From Armatimonadota bacterium (GTDB lineage: Bacteria > Armatimonadota > SYMT01), in NCBI GenBank assembly GCA_041690135.1, contig JAWLHY010000003.1:64001-128000 (forward strand): a DNA stretch of 64,000 bases. Direction: 5' to 3'. Shown piece by piece: positions 6,053 through 16,326 of this stretch (its first letter is position 1; each line of letters begins with the position of its first letter). The position numbers and the translations under genes are program-made. The notes beneath the pieces were generated by a model. It did not search any database. It worked only from the letters and a program-made list of their open reading frames with translations, and was not told the origin of the DNA.

Positions 6053-7063
<1,011 letters not shown>

Positions 7064-7215
7064 TGCAGTCCTATAAGATCAGCGGAGCCCGCAACCTGCT
7101 ATCGGCCACATATCTCGCTGCGGCACTCTCCGGGCTCCCGGAAGAGTGTAGCGATTCGGGGCGAAAGCGCCAATCTCTCGGCGCAGAAAGTTGTCCATCC
7201 CGTGCCTGCCCATGG

Positions 7216-9046
7216 TCAAGCGGAGGCATGGCTTCCGCCCCGGGTTAGTCGCCGCGCTTCTCCCGAATGTACCCCCGCCCCGTTGGTCCGCCCAGGTCCG
7301 CAGCCAGGCTCCTCTTCCAAGCTCGTTTCCGCGTTCTGCAGCGAGTACATTCCGGCGTATAACCCTCCTGCCATCAGCAGCTCGGCATGGGTCCCCGCTT
7401 CCGCGATGCGGCCTTCGTCCAGGACCACGATCCGGTCGGCCCACCGCGCCATGGAGAGCCGGTGGGTGATGATCAGGGTAGTCCGGTCCTGCGCCAGGCG
7501 CTGCAGCGCCTGCTGGATCAGCCATTCCGACTCCGGCTCCACCGCGGAGGTCGGCTCGTCTAGGATCAGGATCCGGGGATCGGCAAGGAAGGCGCGGGCG
7601 ATGCAGAGCCGCTGCCGCTGGCCTCCGGAGAGCCGGACGCCGCGCTCGCCGACCTCCGTATTCCAGCCTTCCGGCAGCTCCTCTTCGATGAACCGGAGCG
7701 CGTTCGCCGCCGCCGCCGCGGTACGGGCTTCCTCCAGGGTGGCTTCCGGGCGGGCATACCGTACGTTCTCCAGCACCGTGCCGGTGAAAAGAAACGGCTC
7801 CTGCAGCACCATCCCGATCTGCCGGCGCAGGCTCTGCAGGGTGGCCTCTCGGAGGGCCCGGCCGTCGATCCGCACGCAACCGGCCGTGGGATCCCAGAAC
7901 CGGGGAAGCAGGTTCACGAGTGTGCTCTTGCCGCCGCCGCTGCTCCCCACGATCGCCACGACCTCGCCGGCCGCCACCTCCAGATCGATCTCGCACAATA
8001 CCGGCCGCGAGCCGTAGGCGAAGTGGACCCCCTCGAAGGTCACCCGGCCGGAAAGGCGGGGCAGCTCCACGGCCCCCGGCGCGTCGGCGACTTCGACCGG
8101 CGCATCGAGCACCTCGAAGACCCGGGCCGCCGCCGCGTTGCCCCGCTGGAACAGGTCGTTGACCTGGGCCAGGCCGTACACCGGCTCCAGCAACTCGCCG
8201 GCATAGGCGCGGAACGCCACCAGCCCCCCCCAGCGTGAAGCGGCCCTGGAGAATGAGCCAGGCGCCGGCCGCGATGGAGAGGGTGGTGGTGACGTGCCCC
8301 AGCAACCGGAGCGACGGATAGAAGAGCGACCGCGCGTTCAGCGCCTGCTGCTCCGCTTCCCAGTGCTCGCCCGTCAACCGCCGGAAACGGACCGCCTCCT
8401 GCGGTTCCTGCGCGAACGCCTTCACGACCAGCGTTCCCGCGAGCAGTTCCTGGAGACGGGCGCTCACATGGCCGAGCCTCCCGCGGGTCGTGCGGTACAG
8501 GTCCCGGATCTTCTCGTTGAAACGGCGGACCAGCACCCACACGATCGCCACCGGCGGCACCACGATGGCGGCGAGGAGCGGGTTCAGCAGCATGATACAG
8601 GTTCCAATCACCAGGAAGGCATAGACATTGGCTAGCACCGACTGCGTGATCCGCAGCGCGACCGACTGCAGCAGGTCCACGTCGCCGACGACCCGCGCGA
8701 TCAGGTCTCCGGACCGGTGCTGCTGCAGATAGCCCACGGATTGGCTCTGCAGCTTCCGGTGGACCTCGTTCCGCAGGTCCCGCACGAACGCCAGGGCGAC
8801 GCGCTCCAACAGGTTCTCCCGCAGCGCGTCGAGGGCGGTCCCCAGCAGGTATGTCCCCAGCATCACCGCCGCCGCGCCGGCCAGGCGGTCGGCGCGCCTC
8901 GCCAGCACCACTTCGTCCACCAGGTACCGCCAGATCCACGGGTGGGCCAGGGAAAGCGGCGTCGCCACCGCCATGCACAACAGCCCGAACCCCGCCTGCC
9001 AGCGGTAGGGGCGAAGGTAACCGAGGAGCCGGAGATAGGTCTTCAT
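7216..9046 (-). pseudogene. ABC exporter (TMD+NBD half transporter) split by a +1 frameshift in a G8 tract; pseudogene, phase-variable gene or sequencing error
   Basis: TMD from MKTYLRLLGYL (9046) to FTLGG. NBD with GSSGGGKST, LSGGQRQR and ILDEPT lies in another frame (7216-8220). C8 run at 8224-8231; C7 restores FTLGGLVAFRAY. Confidence 0.85.
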
Positions 9047-9130
9047 CAGAAACCACCTGGGAGTGGGGCCGCGTTGAGGGAGGTCGTACAGCATGGCGGA
9101 TAGCTCTTCTTCCACCGGACAAAAACACGG

Positions 9131-9159
9131 TTGACATCCCTCGGCCCTTATTGCATACT
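9131..9159 (+). promoter_or_regulatory. Sigma70-type promoter for the DUF1559-lasso arm
   Basis: TTGACA (9131-9136), 17 nt spacer, CATACT (9154-9159) in an AT-rich divergent intergenic region. Confidence 0.55.
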
Positions 9160-9171
9160 CATTGCAGTAAG

Positions 9172-9183
9172 TATACACACTGA
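9172..9183 (+). promoter_or_regulatory. Shared motif TATACACACTGA (copy 1)
   Basis: Identical 12-mer on the - strand at 20053-20064; 9-mer at 21032-21040. Confidence 0.55.
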
Positions 9184-9216
9184 ATACGCATCCGGGTGGT
9201 GCAGGTGAGGGGAACG

Positions 9217-10089
9217 ATGTCCGGCCCAGGATCCAAAACTCGAAAGCCAGGGAGAACGCCCGGAGTACCGGGAGCTCACTCGCGACGCCGGCGGGGGTTC
9301 ACCCTCATCGAGTTCCTGGTGGTCATTGCCATCCTGGCAATCCTCGCCGGGCTGCTCTTTCCCGTCTTCGCCCAGGCGCGGGAGGCGGCCCGCAAGGCCA
9401 ACTGCCTCTCCAACCTGAAGCAGATCGGCGCGGCCTGGCTGCTCTACGCGCAGGACCACGACGAAACCATCGTGACCTATAACGGCAGCCAGGTGGGGAA
9501 CGTGCTCTACAGCTGGGACGCCGCCTACGACGTGGCGAACGAGACCTTCGATATCTCGCAGGGGCTGCTCCAGCCGTACATGAAGAATGCCGCCGTGCTG
9601 GATTGCCTCTCCGCCGGCGGCATCGCCGCACAGCGCAGCTATCGGCTGGCGTACGGCATCAATCACCTCTACCTCTATTACCCGCGCTACCCCGCCGCGG
9701 ACTACCTGGGCAAGTACCAGCCGGCCACCCTGGCACAGGTTGAGCGCCCGGCGGACACAGTCATCATGGCCGACTCGGCCAGCCGGGGCATCGCGCCGCA
9801 CAACCTCGGCCAGATCATCCGCACGCGCAACCTGCGGGCTCCGAGCTACGAGGGCACCGTCGGTCCCTCGGCCCACGGCCGTCATGCCGGGTTTGCGGCG
9901 GTCCTATGGGGCGACGGCCACGTCAAGGCGGTCCGGACGACGCCCCGCGCCGCCCATCCGGACGGAGCGGCGATGGCCGAGTGGTACCGCTCGCACCAGA
10001 TCGGCGACCTCCTCCCGCCCGGGTGCGGGCACGACCAGCCGTGCCAGGACTACTACTTCGAGCTGCGCAAGACGACGGCGGGCCGCTGA
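9217..10089 (+). CDS. Prepilin-type N-terminal cleavage/methylation, DUF1559 / H-X9-DG protein
   Basis: RRG|[39 protein letters not shown]; [18 protein letters not shown]. Confidence 0.9.
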
Positions 10090-10120: not shown

Positions 10121-11968
10121 ATGCCGGCATGGGTGGGTGTGTTGAACCTGGATGGCTCCCCACTGGAGGAGGCGGACCTTCGCCGCCTCCAGTGGGCCGC
10201 CGCGGACCTGCGGGGTTCGGCTGTGAGCCTCTGCGCCCCGTCGGGATCGCCCTGTGGAATGGCGATCGCCTCCTGGGAGCACGGGCCCAGGATCGCGGGC
10301 TGGCCGAGCGTTCCGGCTCCCCAGGACGGAAATCATCTGCGCGTCGTGTGCGAAGGCTGGATCGACGCGGAGGGAACGACCAGGGTGACCGGGGCGACCG
10401 GGGAAGGGGAAGGCTCCGCGGAGATCGTTGCGGAGGCTTACCGCAAGTGGGGCGACGGTTGCCCGGCACACCTGCACGGGGATTACGCCTTTGCCCTCTG
10501 GGACGCCCGGGAGCAGCGCCTGTTGTGTGCCCGCGACACCGGCCAGACGAAGCCGTTCTTTTACGCGGTGTGCGGCCACCGCTTCCTCTGGGCCTCGGAT
10601 CCGCGCCCGCTCCTGGAGCACTGGCCGCTCTCCCGTGACTTCGATGTTCCCTATCTCACCACTTACATGGTGATCGCCGACCGGAACTGGGAGCGAACAC
10701 CCTACACCGCCGTCCGGAAGCTGTCGGGAGGGCATGCCCTGGTGGCGGAGCGTGGCGGCGTACGCTCCTGGCGCTGGTGGGAGCTTCCCGAGCCCGGCTC
10801 CCTCCGCTACCGGCGGGCGGAAGAATACCAGGAGCACCTGCGGGAGCTTCTGGAGCAGGCGGTGCGTGCCCGGCTCCGGGGAGCCGAGCGGGTCTCCGTG
10901 GCCCTCAGCCGGGGGATCGACTCGGCCTCGATCGCCGCCGTGGGCGCCGCCGCCTTCCGGCAGGAAGGCGCGTCCCCTTCCCGCCTGCACTGTGTGACGG
11001 TAAGCTGCACGGACTATCCGGAGGCAGACGAGAGCCCGGATGCCCGCCGCATCGCGAAGCGCCTGGGGCTGCCGCACCAGGTGGTGCCCGCCACCCCGGA
11101 GGCCTGGGATGCCCGTGAGGCACTGGCGCTGCTTGCCGAGCCGAGCGGCATCGTCGGCTACTGGGGCATCTGGGAGGCAATCGCGGCCGGCTGCCTCGCC
11201 ACCGGCAGCCGCGTGCTGCTTACCGGGCAGGGGGGCGAGCTGGTTTCCTGCGACTGCTACCTTTCCCGCCTCTTCCGCGCGAAGCGTTACGGGGAGGTCG
11301 CGCGGGAGCTGTGGCGGTGGCGCCGGGCCGGCGCTCCGCACGCGCCCCTGCTCCGGTTGGAGCTGGCGCAGCTCCAGAACCCGGTGACCCACTGGGCGCC
11401 CGTGGACGGCCTGGAGCCCTACGATTGGCTCCGGCACCCCGAGCTCTGCCGGATGGACATGGAGTGCCTGGGGCAGGCGCACCCTATCCTCCGAAACAAC
11501 CACTACGACTTCGTGGAGGTCGCGCAGGCCACGACCGGGCTCCAGCCGCTCTTCACCCGCCACGGGATCGAGCTGCGCCATCCGCTGCAAGACCGGCGGC
11601 TGGTGGAGTTCGCCTACAGCCTCCCCGTGGAATGGAAGCTGCCGGCGAAAGGTCCTGGGAGTCGCCTGCTTGACAAGCCCCTCCTGCGCCGCGCCCTGGC
11701 GCCGGAGCTGACCCTGGAGCTGCCGAAACCTAGCGCGAGCGTCCGGCGCATGCTGGGACGGCATCGGCACCGGTACTGGACGGCGTTCCGGGACCTCCTC
11801 CAGGACCCGCCGGAGGCGCTGGCCGCGGTGGCCGACATCGATCGTTTGCGTGAGCGCTCCGTGGACCTGCTGCAAGATCGCGGCGGAAAGCGGTTCGTGG
11901 CGCTCACGGCCATTCTTGCCTGGTGGCTCGCAGCCGCGGAACAGGCAAGGCATCCCGCCGTTGTTTGA
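10121..11968 (+). CDS. Lasso peptide cyclase (isopeptide bond-forming, asparagine synthetase-like)
   Basis: GDYAFALWD/LLCARD Ntn-like region lacking the N-terminal Cys; ALSRGIDS PP-loop; LTGQGGE; RHPLQDRRLVEF. ACAGGAG RBS; adjacent to PqqD and B2 genes. Confidence 0.9.
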   Translation: MPAWVGVLNLDGSPLEEADLRRLQWAAADLRGSAVSLCAPSGSPCGMAIASWEHGPRIAGWPSVPAPQDGNHLRVVCEGWIDAEGTTRVTGATGEGEGSAEIVAEAYRKWGDGCPAHLHGDYAFALWDAREQRLLCARDTGQTKPFFYAVCGHRFLWASDPRPLLEHWPLSRDFDVPYLTTYMVIADRNWERTPYTAVRKLSGGHALVAERGGVRSWRWWELPEPGSLRYRRAEEYQEHLRELLEQAVRARLRGAERVSVALSRGIDSASIAAVGAAAFRQEGASPSRLHCVTVSCTDYPEADESPDARRIAKRLGLPHQVVPATPEAWDAREALALLAEPSGIVGYWGIWEAIAAGCLATGSRVLLTGQGGELVSCDCYLSRLFRAKRYGEVARELWRWRRAGAPHAPLLRLELAQLQNPVTHWAPVDGLEPYDWLRHPELCRMDMECLGQAHPILRNNHYDFVEVAQATTGLQPLFTRHGIELRHPLQDRRLVEFAYSLPVEWKLPAKGPGSRLLDKPLLRRALAPELTLELPKPSASVRRMLGRHRHRYWTAFRDLLQDPPEALAAVADIDRLRERSVDLLQDRGGKRFVALTAILAWWLAAAEQARHPAVV

Positions 11969-12015
11969 CGGGCGGCGGAGATCGCTCCTCTACGTCAAGA
12001 TAGGAAACCTGTCCG

Positions 12016-12174
12016 ATGAACAAGCAGAAGAAGCAGTATGAAGGAATCCGTCTGGAAGCATACGGCTCGCTGACCGAGCTGGTGCTCGACCGCTGCAACG
12101 GCGGCGACGGCGACTTCAACACCGTCCATGGCGGCGAGGACTCGAGCCCGCTGCCGTTCCAGACCAACAAGTAA
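12016..12174 (+). CDS. Lasso peptide precursor (52 aa), below the ORF-track cutoff
   Basis: MNKQKKQYEGIRLEAYGSLTELVL-DRCNGGDGDFNTVHGGEDSSPLPFQTNK. Y/L/G spacing of the lasso leader motif; AGGA RBS; lies between the cyclase and the RRE. Confidence 0.85.
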   Translation: MNKQKKQYEGIRLEAYGSLTELVLDRCNGGDGDFNTVHGGEDSSPLPFQTNK

Positions 12175-12195
12175 ACCCGGAGCGGCAAGCAGCGT

Positions 12196-12259
12196 CCGGC
12201 CCCTCTCGTTGACCCCGCGAGGGGCCGGCACTTCCGGAGACCGGGGAAACCCGGTCTCC
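12196..12259 (+). promoter_or_regulatory. Two stem-loops directly after the precursor gene
   Basis: CCGGCCCCTC...GAGGGGCCGG (12196-12228) and GGAGACCGGG-GAAA-CCCGGTCTCC (12236-12259). Confidence 0.7.
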
Positions 12260-12301
12260 ACCCATCTCATTGTAGATTGAAACGATCACCCGAGCAAAAC
12301 C

Positions 12302-12598
12302 ATGATGGAGCTGGACCAACCCTTTGTGCTCTCCCCCGCCGTGCAGGATACGGAGGCGGACGGCGATCTCGTGCTGCTCGATCTCGAGCGCGAGCAGTTC
12401 TTCGGGCTGAACGAGGCGGGCGCCCACCTGTGGCGCGGCCTGGCGGAAGGACGCACCCCGCGTCAGATCATCGCAGAGCTGGCCGAGTGCTACGACGCAC
12501 CGGAAGAGCGGCTGCGGGCGGATGTGCTGGCCACGCTGGAACAGTTCGCGACGCGCGGATGGGTGACCCCGCAGGCCTCGCCCGCAGTGGGAGGGTAG
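12302..12598 (+). CDS. PqqD-family RiPP recognition element (lasso B1)
   Basis: DGDLVLLD..QFFGLNEAGAHLWRGL..LAECYDA..LRADV signature. Confidence 0.92.
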   Translation: MMELDQPFVLSPAVQDTEADGDLVLLDLEREQFFGLNEAGAHLWRGLAEGRTPRQIIAELAECYDAPEERLRADVLATLEQFATRGWVTPQASPAVGG

Positions 12599-12603
12599 CC
12601 GGG

Positions 12604-13104
12604 ATGATCGGCACTCTCCGCCGGGCATGGCTCTTCACCCGGGCCTATGCGCAACTGCTCCGGATCCAGAGGGTCCTCCTCCAGCGGGGCTTCTCCGGTC
12701 TCCAGGCGGATTATCTCCTTCCCTGGAAGCCGGGGAGCCGGCCCGTCCGCGCGCAGGACCGCCTGGCCCAGGAGGTGGAATGGGCCGTGGAGCAGGCCTG
12801 CGCCTGGCAACTCCGGCGCACCGTCTGCCTGCATCGCGCCACCCTCGCCTACAGCCTTCTTCGCGCCATCGGCGGCCGGCCCCGCTTCGTGATGGGCGTG
12901 GCCGGCCGCCCGTTCGGCTCGCACGCCTGGGTCGAGCTGGAAGGAGAGCCTTTTGCCGACGGCGAGATGGAAGCCTCTCGCTATCATTTCCGGCCGATCC
13001 TCTCACTTCCGGCGACTGCCCGTCTCAACCCGTCAGGCGGAGAGGAACCGCGATCACCGCTAGCGCGTTGTAATAGCTCAGCACCCGCGCGTCGCGGCGC
13101 ATGA
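12604..13104 (+). CDS. Lasso peptide B2 leader peptidase (transglutaminase-like)
   Basis: CLHRA and PFGSHAWVE motifs; GGGAGG RBS; 3' end overlaps the convergent gene by 80 nt. Confidence 0.92.
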   Translation: MIGTLRRAWLFTRAYAQLLRIQRVLLQRGFSGLQADYLLPWKPGSRPVRAQDRLAQEVEWAVEQACAWQLRRTVCLHRATLAYSLLRAIGGRPRFVMGVAGRPFGSHAWVELEGEPFADGEMEASRYHFRPILSLPATARLNPSGGEEPRSPLARCNSSAPARRGA

Positions 13105-14572
13105 GCGTCAGGAAGAGGCGGGCCGGGCTTCCCGCGCGCAGCAGCGGCACGAGCGAGGGCCAGGCGATCCGGACCCGCACTTCATACATGGGATGACCGG
13201 GCTGCACCACCGCATCACCCGGTCCCGCGAGCCGCATCTCGTCGTCTCCTCCGAGCTCAACGGAAAAGCACTCCCCACAGCCTTCGCCGTCTAGCCGCAG
13301 GCGGTACTCCAGACGGGGGTCGGTCAATCGCGGCAACCGCAGCGCCAATCCCAGGCTACCTTCCTCGCGCCAGGCGCAGAGTGCCGGGAGGTCGAAGTCC
13401 TCGTCCGACGCATGCACGAGGAGCCGGTCCAGGCCTCCCGGCGCCGGTGGAACCGGGCCGCGGCTCCACGGCCCCTCGGCCCGCTCGACTCGCAGCCTGC
13501 TCCACCCTACCTGCTCCAGCAGGTCCATCGGTTCGGGAGCGAGGAGAGCGGTCTCCGGCGCCCCCAGGTCCACCCAGGCACCCCGGAACCCCAGGCAGCG
13601 GGGATAGCTCCGGCGCGGCCGGCCCGGTACCGGGCCGCTTCCGGAGAGAGGGTCCTCACCGCAGAGCCGGCCCAGCAGGCGCCGGGCGAGGTCGACCGCG
13701 TCGCCGGCGCCGAACTCCCACACCAGCTCGCCGAAGCGGCCCGCGTCGAAGTCCGGCAGCCGGAACAGGTCGCGGATCTCCGCCAGCAGTCCCAGCCGGA
13801 CCGGCTGCGCGAGCAGGAACGGCGACTGGAGGTACTCCTTGAACTCGTGCGCGCAGAGGATGAGCGCGGCCATTTCGGGCCGGGGGACGCGGAAGCCCTC
13901 CAGGTCCGGAGTTCGCGCCCGGGTCAGGTGCGGCAGCAGATCCGCGAACCGGAGTTCTCTCTGGCGGGGCATGGCGTGAGGCTGAAGCCAGATTCCCGGG
14001 TTCCGCTCCGGCGTGAGATCGAGGTCATGCATCCCGGGCGGATAGGAGTAGACCGGAAAGTAGCGGTGAATCTCCAGGGCCACACCGCCGCGCCGGAAAC
14101 TTCCGAGCTCGTGCCGCCATTCATAGTCGAACGCGCCGGTGTAGCCCAATGCCTCCAGTGCGGGCTGAAGCGTTTCCACTTCCGAACAGAGGAGGTCGAC
14201 GTCGCCGCTGTAGCGCAGCCCCGCCTGATTTCCGGTCAGAGCGTAGGTAGTCATCCCCTTGATGACCACCGGACGGTGCTCCGGTGTGAGAACGGTGTGA
14301 AGCTCCCGCAGGGCTCCCACCTGACGCTCGTAGTTGGCCAGCGCGGCGGCCCGCTGGGCGCGCATCGCCTGGAGCAGCGCCGGGGTGCACCACGGGGGGA
14401 CCTCTCCCTCCTTGACCCGCCGCAAGAACCGCCCGGCGAGCCGGTGCCGGACCAGCAGATCACAAAGATGGCCGGGGTCGAGACCGGCCTCCACCGGCGC
14501 CTCTTCCCGCAGGCCGGCGGCCCAGCAAAGCGCCTCGAGCCCGGGCGGGTAAGTCTCCTCCGGGGCCCTCAT
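13025..14572 (-). CDS. Nucleotidyltransferase family protein (NTP_transf_5-like) with C-terminal extension
   Basis: VVIKG, RYSGDVDLL and LEIH motifs, typical of lasso-associated nucleotidyltransferases. Confidence 0.85.
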   Translation of the reverse strand: MRAPEETYPPGLEALCWAAGLREEAPVEAGLDPGHLCDLLVRHRLAGRFLRRVKEGEVPPWCTPALLQAMRAQRAAALANYERQVGALRELHTVLTPEHRPVVIKGMTTYALTGNQAGLRYSGDVDLLCSEVETLQPALEALGYTGAFDYEWRHELGSFRRGGVALEIHRYFPVYSYPPGMHDLDLTPERNPGIWLQPHAMPRQRELRFADLLPHLTRARTPDLEGFRVPRPEMAALILCAHEFKEYLQSPFLLAQPVRLGLLAEIRDLFRLPDFDAGRFGELVWEFGAGDAVDLARRLLGRLCGEDPLSGSGPVPGRPRRSYPRCLGFRGAWVDLGAPETALLAPEPMDLLEQVGWSRLRVERAEGPWSRGPVPPAPGGLDRLLVHASDEDFDLPALCAWREEGSLGLALRLPRLTDPRLEYRLRLDGEGCGECFSVELGGDDEMRLAGPGDAVVQPGHPMYEVRVRIAWPSLVPLLRAGSPARLFLTLMRRDARVLSYYNALAVIAVPLRLTG

Positions 14573-15540
14573 GCCGCCGCCTCTCCCCGGCTCAAACCGG
14601 CGTCGTTGGCCCTGAGCGCCAGGGAGCGGATGACGGATACCAGCTCGGGCAGGATGTCGAACCGCTTCGGATACTCCAGGGTATAGACGGGTACCGCCCG
14701 CGCGACCGCCGCGTACTGCGCCATGACGTGTCGCGTCTCAAAAGGGGGCGCGGAACCGAGCACCGCCATCGAGTTCCGCATCAAGAGGGGAACGACCCGG
14801 GCCGCCGGCTGACGCTCGGCGCGTACTTCGGCGGCCTCGGGCCGGGGCTGGAGCGCGAACACGGCGGCCAGGGGAGCCGCCTGGACGGCCCGGCGCTCCG
14901 GGGGCACGGGATACCACCACTTGTCTCGCCCGTTTCCCACTTCCGGCATTCCGCCGCCGTCCACGCCGTACCGGTCGAGCAGTTCGCGTCCGACCTTGGG
15001 GTAAAGGGAAACGGCGGGAACGGCAATCGCCCGCCCGTGCTCCAGGCGCACCGGAACCGCGTCGTCATTGGCGAAGAGCCCGCCCGCCTCCAGCAGCGCC
15101 CAGAGCGTCGTCGATTTGCCCGTTCCCGAAGGGGCGAGGAGGGCGACACGGCGATCCTCCAGGTCCACCGCGGCGGCATGGAGAGACAGATACCCCCGGA
15201 TAGCTGAGCAGAGCCCCAGCCCCATTCCGAGGACGTAGGTCGCGGCCTCCGCGTGGTGCTCGGGCGGCGCGTCCACCCCGATCCGCTCGCCGCGCTCGTG
15301 AACGTGCAACCGGAAGCGGTCGCGCACCCGCAGGAGGAAACCCTCCTCCTGCCGGTACCACGCCAGGGCCCCACCGAAGTAACTGGCGAGGCAATCCGTC
15401 TCCACCGCGGGCGGCAGGTCCTGAAACTCCACGCGGAGGGGTTCGGAGCCGCCGGCGCCCTCCGCGGGACGACAGCGCGCGTCGCACGGGAGCACCAGGT
15501 CGCTCTTCACCTGGAACTGCTGAATGAAATAATGTTGCAT
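14569..15540 (-). CDS. HPr kinase-like P-loop protein (lasso-associated kinase)
   Basis: LHAAAV, APSGTGKST and ANDD motifs; ATGA overlap with the nucleotidyltransferase. Confidence 0.88.
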   Translation of the reverse strand: MQHYFIQQFQVKSDLVLPCDARCRPAEGAGGSEPLRVEFQDLPPAVETDCLASYFGGALAWYRQEEGFLLRVRDRFRLHVHERGERIGVDAPPEHHAEAATYVLGMGLGLCSAIRGYLSLHAAAVDLEDRRVALLAPSGTGKSTTLWALLEAGGLFANDDAVPVRLEHGRAIAVPAVSLYPKVGRELLDRYGVDGGGMPEVGNGRDKWWYPVPPERRAVQAAPLAAVFALQPRPEAAEVRAERQPAARVVPLLMRNSMAVLGSAPPFETRHVMAQYAAVARAVPVYTLEYPKRFDILPELVSVIRSLALRANDAGLSRGEAAA

Positions 15541-15558
15541 TTTCAATCGATGCGAAAA

Positions 15559-16326
15559 CTACGGCACCTTGGTCAGGGTGAAGAGGTTGTCCTGCTTTGC
15601 GTCGCCTCGGCCCACGCCCGGCGGAAGCAGGTCGCCGAGGCGGTTCTGCCGGTGGAAGTCGGTAATTGCCGCGCTGCCGCCCACACTGTCGCGCGGCGTC
15701 ACCCGGACCGCCTTCGCATGGCCGTCGTACCACACCACGTTGGCCCACTCGTTGTGCCTGCCGTGCGCGGTCGGCGTCCCGGCGAAGGAGGGCTGCCGCA
15801 GTGTGCGAGAGCGGGCCAGGGCGCCCGTGGCCGGCGAGCGCCAGCCGGTATCCGCGAGGATGATTGTATCCGTCGGCGCTTCGAAGGCCGCCTGGGAGGG
15901 CGGGGGAACGAACCCCGCCCCGTAAACCATGATGTTGAGACCGTAGGCCAGGCGGTAGTTGTTCGCTACCGGAATACCCGCCGCCGAGGGACAGTCCACA
16001 ATCGGCGCGCTCTTCATATACGGCTGGATCAGCCCCTGGGAGATGTCGAACTGCCCGGTGCTCGCGTCGTAGACGGAGTCCCAGTAGTAGAAGAGATTTC
16101 CGGTCGGGTCGGTGCCGCCGTTCACCACGCAGAACGTCTCGTCGTAGTCCTGGGCGTACATCAGCCAGGCCGTGCCGAACTGCTTCAGGTTGGAAAGGCA
16201 ACTGGTGGAGCGGGCGGCTTCCCGCGCCCGGGCGAACACCGGAAAGAGGATGGCGGCCAAGATGGCGATGATGGCTATCACGACGAGCAGTTCGATCAGC
16301 GTGAAGCCGCGCGCGGATCTGCGCAT
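15559..16326 (-). CDS. Prepilin-type N-terminal cleavage/methylation, DUF1559 / H-X9-DG protein (paralog of 9217)
   Basis: RG|[32 protein letters not shown]; [18 protein letters not shown]; AGGAG RBS. Confidence 0.9.

Follow-up and report, generated by a model that had tools for sequence, protein, structure and literature searches.

Genes at the locus

The window analyzed in this study is a 64,000-nucleotide stretch of the genome of an Armatimonadota bacterium (assembly GCA_041690135.1, contig JAWLHY010000003.1, positions 64,001 to 128,000 of the forward strand), and our subject is a short open reading frame (ORF) at positions 12016-12174 of the window which an earlier note, made from the letters alone, took to encode the precursor of a lasso peptide. 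On the basis of its neighboring genes, its homologues and its match to a leader profile, we are highly confident that this ORF is a genuine lasso precursor gene. The genes and features of its locus are as follows.

12016..12174, forward strand: candidate lasso precursor gene A, 52 aa plus stop; leader codons 1-24 (12016-12087), predicted core codons 25-52 (12088-12171)
10121..11968, forward strand: lasso cyclase C, 615 aa from the ATG at 10121; Asn_synthase (5.2e-31) and GATase_7
12194-12231 and 12236-12259, forward strand: two G+C-rich hairpins between A and B1, with no U tract
12302..12598, forward strand: B1, PqqD-type leader-recognition element, 98 aa; PqqD (5.4e-19)
12604..13104, forward strand: B2, transglutaminase-like leader peptidase, 166 aa from the ATG at 12604; Transglut_core3 (9.3e-19)
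13025..14572, reverse strand: N, NTP_transf_5 nucleotidyltransferase-like tailoring gene, 515 aa; PF14907 (1.8e-19)
14569..15546, reverse strand: K, HPr-kinase-related kinase, 325 aa; its stop overlaps the start of N

The ORF translates to MNKQKKQYEGIRLEAYGSLTELVLDRCNGGDGDFNTVHGGEDSSPLPFQTNK. The peptide sequence and residue counts given in the earlier note are correct on translation, as is the arithmetic of its alternative parse, a core starting at Cys27 with a 7-residue ring closed on Asp33. The ATG at 12016 is the sole start codon of an open frame that opens 4 codons upstream, and the cyclase gene ends 47 nt before the ORF begins. With a cut between Leu24 and Asp25, Tyr8 is residue -17, Ile11 is -14, Leu13 is -12, Gly17 is -8 and Val23 is -2, and the predicted core is 28 residues long and contains Asp1, Asp7, Asp9, Phe10, His14 and one Cys, at position 3.

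The cyclase matches NF033535, the model for the lasso peptide isopeptide bond-forming cyclase, at 1.6e-56, which is below its 525-bit cut-off, and B1 likewise matches the lasso PqqD chaperone model NF033530 (2.1e-13) below its cut-off. B2 matches the lasso B2 model NF033537 at 8.8e-17 with 61.7 bits, above the cut-off of 33, and in its translation Cys, His and Asp follow one another at distances of 32 and 12 residues, in agreement with the spacing of the McjB triad. N has a counterpart in a related cluster on a metagenome contig (L123:9235-10731). K is 43% identical to the corresponding gene of that cluster (L123:7777-8868), with the motifs LHA, GTGKST and NDD conserved, which hold the His, the P-loop Lys and the Asp-Asp pair. 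N is convergent with B2, and the 3′ ends of the two ORFs overlap by 80 nt (13025-13104). The Pfam domains of both proteins stop well short of this overlap, so one ORF or the other may be drawn too long at its end. The ORFs of C, B1, B2, K and N are uninterrupted, and their G+C content at third codon positions (GC3) is gene-like. Taken as a whole, the locus is quite probably a lasso cluster of class II type, with the order C-A-B1-B2 and a convergent K-N pair.

The region between A and B1 (12172-12301) folds as RNA at -57.3 kcal/mol (z -4.33), and none of 200 shuffled sequences was equally stable. The hairpins within it presumably resemble the stem-loops that lie between the A and B genes in other lasso operons, and by analogy with those operons they may have a role in the stability of the A transcript or in attenuation.

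Two genes on the other side of the cyclase could also belong to the locus.

7079..9178, reverse strand: ABC exporter, candidate D gene; ABC_membrane in this frame, ABC_tran in the frame of 7216..8220
6053..7063, reverse strand: O-methyltransferase (Methyltransf_2 plus dimerization domain, 2.9e-34), beyond the ABC exporter

The placement of the ABC exporter in the cluster is suggested by its position. The same is true of the O-methyltransferase, for which no counterpart was seen in L123, so its tie to the window's cluster is positional and otherwise unsupported. The C-terminal methyltransferases of lassomycin-like clusters are reported to share the fold class of Methyltransf_2 O-methyltransferases (PMC9266682).

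Homologues and the identity of the precursor gene

A search of 5.8 billion protein clusters with the precursor returned a single cluster, consisting of the window's own peptide and two close variants, P0003 and P0004. The exact 52-aa peptide is already held in a public protein collection with NCBI as its source, so some gene caller must have predicted it, and the description of the gene as unannotated could not be confirmed. Both variants are 50 aa long, the last two residues being absent; P0003, which is 86% identical to the window's peptide, has 6 substitutions relative to it, and P0004 has 3. Across the two, the substitutions are N2K, I11L, A15E, L24M, N28D, F34Y and T50A, most of which are conservative.

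More distant homologues were reached through the cyclase. Among 401 genomes of the phylum, 54 have a cyclase match at E <= 1e-20, and one of them, G196, contains the sole full-length close relative (44% identity). The other matches in the phylum are 27-36% identical and mostly partial, and they may include ordinary Asn synthetases as well as lasso cyclases of a more distant kind. The metagenome contig L123 mentioned above carries the same cluster as G196. In both, a 54-aa peptide, MNNEVKKAYEAPKMTDFGTLEQVVLNLHDTGTGDAGTEHGGADSGWVAIEEQLS, follows directly after the cyclase, and B1, B2, K and N come after it on one strand. A homologous precursor next to a cyclase, which the earlier note had proposed to look for, was thus found: the G196/L123 peptide is 35% identical to the window's precursor, in a cluster whose cyclase, K and B1 are 44%, 43% and 35% identical to those of the window. 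Because the homologues occupy a matching position in a related cluster, the ORF is, as judged by sequence comparison, a conserved and syntenic gene. A three-sequence profile recovers the G196/L123 family peptides at E ~1e-31.

Scans of genomes and metagenome contigs found the peptide family elsewhere only in L043, which is the same contig as that of G196, and in L123, while no precursor matching this family was seen at L044 (cyclase 40% identical) or L124 (33%). Six other genomes of the same taxonomic family contained no relatives (best E >= 0.27, the sole good match being the window itself), and a tblastn search of the 9.1-Mb genome gave no paralogues of the peptide, the best other match (E 0.057) lying inside a long ORF. 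All four family members share Tyr(-17), Gly(-8), Val(-2), Gly6, Gly8, Asp9, Thr12, His14-Gly15-Gly16 and Asp18-Ser19, and they differ from one another at positions -14 (Ile, Leu or Pro), -1 (Leu or Met), 1 (Asp or Asn), 3 (Cys or His) and 7 (Asp or Thr).

The leader can also be recognized from outside the family. A leader profile made from other clusters' precursors (alignment A2, described below) found the ORF at E 2.5e-15 in a search of the 151,827 small ORFs of the genome. Long spurious ORFs are numerous in G+C-rich genomes, and 4 other ORFs of 50-94 aa overlap the same intergenic spacer, so that an ORF arising there by chance has to be considered. Such an ORF would not be expected to have homologues at a matching position beside a 44%-identical cyclase, nor this match to the leader profile, gene-like G+C content by codon position and two close variants with few, mostly conservative amino-acid changes, and we regard a chance origin as extremely improbable.

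Only two other ORFs of the genome matched the leader profile at E <1e-5, one on contig C4 (1.4e-8) and one on contig C9 (3.8e-6). They bear on a possibility raised in the earlier note, that a canonical precursor elsewhere in the genome is the true substrate of the window's enzymes. Canonical precursors do exist, and since each of them adjoins its own cyclase (the one on C4 also its own B2, B1 and K), they are parts of separate clusters. The C4 cluster (G000:C4 about 140817-145735, L203) is kinase-linked, with B2, C, A, B1 and K genes, and its precursor has a canonical leader (Tyr, Pro, Ile, Gly, Thr-2) and a 15-residue core in which the same spacing predicts an Asp1-Asp8 ring. It resembles the window's cluster in gene content and in its predicted Asp1 core, and differs from it in its canonical leader, its 8-residue ring, its gene order and a core without sequence similarity to that of the window. 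At the C9 locus (G000:C9 about 286966-289144, L204), a cyclase precedes a precursor that has the canonical Thr(-2) and a Gly1-Asp8 core. A further locus on contig C1 (G000:C1 about 1187311-1193920, L205) contains a cyclase, B2, an ABC transporter and a kinase-like match, and its candidate precursor has a leader with Trp and a shifted Pro. The genome holds at least four lasso loci.

Several observations weigh against the identification of the ORF and of its cluster. Tyr(-17), Leu(-12) and Gly(-8) of the leader motif are present, but Pro(-14) is replaced by Ile and Thr(-2) by Val, so that the leader departs from the motif at two of its five canonical positions. No family in Pfam or NCBIfam recognizes the peptide, even at E values up to 1. 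The G+C content of the ORF by codon position, 0.58/0.36/0.85, agrees with the GC3 of 0.77-0.85 in neighboring genes but does not prove the strand, as an antisense ORF (11904..12188) shares the third positions (0.87 in the overlap); homology and synteny, and not GC3, exclude this antisense ORF. The family matches of K fall below curated cut-offs (TIGR04352, HprK-related kinase A, 1.7e-6; Hpr_kinase_C, 0.027). The ABC exporter looks frameshifted: its reading switches frame near 8222 while the sequence runs smoothly across the switch, which could be a real frameshift or an assembly error. Finally, the precursor is a lasso candidate known from its sequence; the single sequencing run X1 yielded only a 264-nt contig inside the cyclase gene together with unrelated pieces, and says nothing on expression.

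The condition of the exporter, which is split over two frames, raises the question of whether the precursor is genuine but its cluster is silent or decaying in this organism, so that no mature product is made. The loss of Pro(-14) could be seen in the same way, as Ile or Leu is found in its place only in the three close variants and the distant counterpart keeps Pro. In addition, the related bsf cluster of Bradymonas sediminis FA350 (Duan et al. 2023) gave no product in five hosts (PMC10368454). The same source, however, describes a P(-14)A variant of its precursor BsfA that was still cleaved. C, B1, B2, K and N of the window are intact with gene-like GC3, and the few changes among the close variants are mostly conservative, as under selection (I/L, L/M, F/Y, N/D and N/K; A/E and T/A less so). 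Since the frameshift may be an assembly error and the exporter is linked to the cluster by position only, we consider a decayed or silent cluster improbable, and prefer to read the ORF as the precursor of a working one.

Predicted leader cleavage and ring formation, and the proposed pathway

The following two sites are predicted within the precursor.

12082..12090, forward strand: predicted cleavage site, Val23(-2) Leu24(-1) / Asp25(+1), from the Tyr(-17) spacing and conservation in the four family members
12112..12114, forward strand: Asp33 (core position 9), predicted isopeptide acceptor, conserved in 4/4 family members and fitting the Asp column of relatives

The leader half of the profile matched dozens of small ORFs adjoining cyclase relatives in the loci examined. 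For counting, we used all 76 distinct ORFs that contain [YFW]xxPx[LIVM]xxxG near related cyclases. Residue 15 after the aromatic is Thr in 45 of these, Val in 5 and Ser in 5, and the rest are scattered and look mostly like noise. When the core is placed by the Tyr(-17) rule, 25 ORFs lack an acidic residue at core positions 7-10, and one has three, at 7, 8 and 9. In the others the sole acidic residue of this segment is at position 9 (35 ORFs), 8 (8 ORFs), 10 (6 ORFs) or 7 (1 ORF). The window's peptide, with Asp33 at position 9, fits the commonest acceptor pattern. In alignment A2 (40 rows), Tyr8, Pro11 and Asp33 are >=90% conserved and Gly17 is invariant, but a sequence entered this set only if it had Pro, T/V/I at -2 and an acidic residue at core 7-10, so the near-invariance of its Asp column is partly circular. 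The leader-half profile matches, which are free of these selection requirements, show the same picture. Core position 1 is very variable in the 76 relatives (G, A, S, T, K, Q, F, Y, V, E, D and N).

The boundary proposed in the earlier note, with Val at -2 and Asp as the first core residue, is thus the one best supported by comparison with the spacing in relatives, and the parse holds because the Tyr(-17) spacing, the precursors of neighboring clusters and the conservation of Asp33 all agree with it. We consider a cut between Leu24 and Asp25 followed by closure of a 9-residue ring between Asp25 and Asp33 to be the probable course of maturation. Asp7 and Asp9 had both been named as candidate ring acceptors, and both residues are present; Asp9 is conserved in 4/4 family members and Asp7 is not, being replaced by Thr in G196. 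Asp9 (Asp33) rather than Asp7 is, on this conservation, the likely acceptor. A different start, with Thr20 as residue -2 and a core from Leu22, was rejected, as it breaks the Tyr spacing and leaves no Asp or Glu at core positions 7-9.

The same gene and the same pathway could also work with another cut or another ring. The precursor might be cut before Arg26 or before Cys27, giving a ring of 8 or 7 residues, respectively, closed on Asp33, or a 7-residue ring might form between Asp25 and Asp31. Lasso peptides normally include ones with rings of 7 or 8 residues, Cys is classical at position 1 where Asp is not, the sole acidic residue lies at position 8 in 8/76 relatives and at 7 in 1/76, and Asp31 is present in 3/4 family members. 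Nevertheless, Asp31 is Thr in G196/L123 while Asp33 is invariant, and neither Arg26 nor Cys27 is conserved, the former aligning with Leu and the latter with His in G196. If the core began at Arg26 or Cys27, residue -2 would be Leu/Met or Asp/Asn and no longer a β-branched Thr, Ile or Val as in relatives, and the Tyr(-17) spacing that 45+5 relatives keep would be lost. Such alternatives seem unlikely to us, and we retain the Asp25-Asp33 ring.

The earlier note saw in the departures of the leader from the canonical motif an unusual mode of substrate recognition. As something new, this reading is not supported by the comparison with relatives. Val(-2) occurs in 5/76 ORFs and is seen at L174/L182, L197, L195 and L060, and Pro(-14) is missing from two other apparent lasso precursors, at L196 (3806-4015, Met) and L114 (5258-5581, Ala). 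Among 50 pattern matches collected without the Pro requirement, Pro is found in 41, and 3 of the other 9 were judged to be real by their position. The L196 precursor also has Val(-2) and Leu(-1), and it adjoins a kinase, a cyclase and a B1 that is among the best matches to the window's B1. Ile or Val at -2 is moreover already in print, being described in PMC10368454 as "rare but not uncommon" and as confined to kinase-bearing clusters, with Ile(-2) tested at the bench. From the same source comes a result less favorable to the cut after Val23-Leu24: an I(-2)V variant of BsfA was barely cleaved (PMC10368454), which would mean that Val(-2) is tolerated only by matching enzymes.

In the pathway that we propose, the cleavage site, the ring, the threading, every enzymatic step and the site of phosphorylation are predicted from these comparisons. 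The 24-residue leader would be bound by the PqqD-type B1 through its Tyr(-17)...Leu(-12)...Gly(-8) segment. While the precursor is still linear, the HPr-kinase-like K would phosphorylate one of its hydroxyl residues, and the nucleotidyltransferase-like N may then decorate that phosphate. The cysteine protease B2 would cut after Val23-Leu24, and the Asn-synthetase-like cyclase would activate the side chain of Asp33 and join it to the new α-amine of Asp25. The product would be a lasso with 9 residues in the ring and a threaded tail of 19 residues.

For the first of these steps, the earlier note had suggested modeling the complex of B1 with the leader. A co-fold of B1 with the precursor received the grade "weak support", with a score of 0.45 (0.46/0.45/0.45 in individual runs) compared with 0.00 for the best of 3 controls; the runs agree in >=96% of contacts, and the partner pLDDT is >=52. 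The mark that it passed is reached by 116/157 solved complexes and by 2/215 mismatched pairs, but at values <=0.60 by only 18/157 solved complexes and by both of the passing mismatches, and these benchmark counts hold only roughly here, as the co-fold used its own alignments. The pass may also reflect a likeness to solved complexes of RiPP recognition elements (RREs) with leaders that the model remembers. When aromatic residues of B1 in the "YYGL/FFGL" segment were compared by eye with Thr or Val at -2, no consistent pattern was seen.

Putative tailoring genes and comparison with known lasso systems

Because K homologues were present near the cyclase relative in 98/202 loci examined, the window's cyclase belongs to a kinase-associated branch of lasso clusters. 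Whether K and N act on this peptide is, in our estimation, an even question. The C-terminal Ser that serves as the paeninodin-type acceptor is absent, the window's peptide ending in Lys and P0003 and P0004 in Ala, and it is found only in G196/L123. Ser3, the Bsf-type acceptor, is absent as well, core position 3 being Cys in the window and His in G196. The peptide is thus without both experimentally known kinase target sites, a further point against the pathway outlined above. Across the four family members, hydroxyl residues are conserved at Thr12 and Ser19 only. Many precursors located by kinase-bearing cyclase relatives end in Thr (…NTRT, …KPKT, …TKRT, …MAKT, …QSMT) and not in the paeninodin-type Ser; examples are the loci L129, L133, L144, L160, L162, L132 and L045.

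Two prepilin-like genes flank the cluster.

9196..10089, forward strand: DUF1559/prepilin-type gene, 31 nt upstream of C; N_methyl plus DUF1559
15559..16326 (start approximate), reverse strand: second DUF1559/prepilin-type gene; N_methyl plus DUF1559, motif at 16308

The first 30 kb of the window contains no further gene of this type. The L123 cluster is also headed by a DUF1559 gene (L123:415-1281), which is 42% identical to the 9196-10089 gene. When the L123 gene was compared with the window's genome, the window pair were the top two of 85 matches, with 132 and 121 bits, and the third had 80 bits. From these similarities the DUF1559 pair looks co-inherited with the cluster, and the 9196-10089 gene may be part of it. 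DUF1559 is a very large orphan family. A speculative and rather doubtful extension of the pathway is that the K/N pair modifies an internal tail residue, Thr12 or Ser19, and that the DUF1559 pair are working parts of the system, in export, self-protection or delivery. If this were true, a bulky phospho(glycosyl) group would sit on the threaded tail of an Asp1-Asp9 lasso, and the DUF1559 family would gain its first functional link.

If the cluster is expressed, its product would be a natural lasso peptide whose ring begins with Asp, made from a precursor with a Val(-2)/Ile(-14) leader. A limited literature search found no characterized natural lasso peptide with Asp1. The source phylum is essentially without characterized lasso peptides: a literature search found lasso peptides mentioned along with Armatimonadota in 2 papers, in neither case in the title or abstract, and the sister cluster of G196 is reported here from the same phylum. 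The locus offers a natural set of enzymes and substrate for asking how B1 and B2 recognize a leader that lacks both Pro(-14) and Thr(-2), how a cyclase takes an acidic first residue, and where a lasso kinase acts when neither known target site is present. We see these findings as useful increments to an active field rather than as the opening of a new question.

Among the closest known systems is the bsf cluster. By its published description (PMC10368454), it shares with the window a split B1/B2, a cyclase, an HPr-kinase-like K and a nucleotidyltransferase-like N, and in both the penultimate leader residue is β-branched and hydrophobic instead of Thr; Val(-2) is noted there in silico in other kinase-bearing clusters. 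BsfA has a natural Ile(-2) leader with Pro(-14) and a Gly1-Asp8 ring in which Ser3 is phosphorylated, whereas the window's peptide has Val(-2), Ile(-14), a predicted Asp1-Asp9 ring and Cys3.

The cyclase relatives of Paenibacillus are 25-28% identical to the window's cyclase. The precursors of paeninodin and pseudomycoidin, unlike the window's peptide, have Thr(-2). Paeninodin (PadeA) and pseudomycoidin (PsmA), both from Bacillota, resemble the window's system in having a kinase gene K, which in psm is accompanied by an N gene from an uncharacterized NTP-transferase family. In paeninodin-type systems the kinase adds phosphate to the C-terminal Ser while the precursor is still linear, and the N protein of pseudomycoidin is required for the addition of a hexose to the phosphate (PMC9266682 and PMC6993621). 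The C-terminal Ser is (poly)phosphorylated in these peptides and hexosylated in pseudomycoidin, while the window's peptide ends in Lys.

Polar or acidic residues at position 1, such as the Asn1 of G196 and the predicted Asp1 of the window, have characterized precedents as well. Asn1 was demonstrated in metanodin (PMC12670498), palassoptide A2 has a Glu1-Glu8 ring, and Pro was the sole residue never found at position 1 in a large survey (PMC13632552). Both peptides differ from the window's in having Thr(-2) leaders (stated as such for metanodin), and the passages on them that were consulted mention no kinase.

The prediction of a new lasso chemotype in the earlier note is therefore not borne out, since a kinase- and NTP_transf_5-linked subgroup with Ile/Val(-2) is already in print, as are Asn1 and Glu1 peptides. 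What remains unusual about the locus is a peptide with neither a C-terminal Ser nor Ser3, the two DUF1559 genes found with the cluster and the frameshifted-looking ABC exporter. Val(-2) is a known trait of the subgroup, Ile/Val(-2) having been published for kinase-linked clusters, and the window's peptide belongs to this kinase- and nucleotidyltransferase-linked Ile/Val(-2) subgroup.

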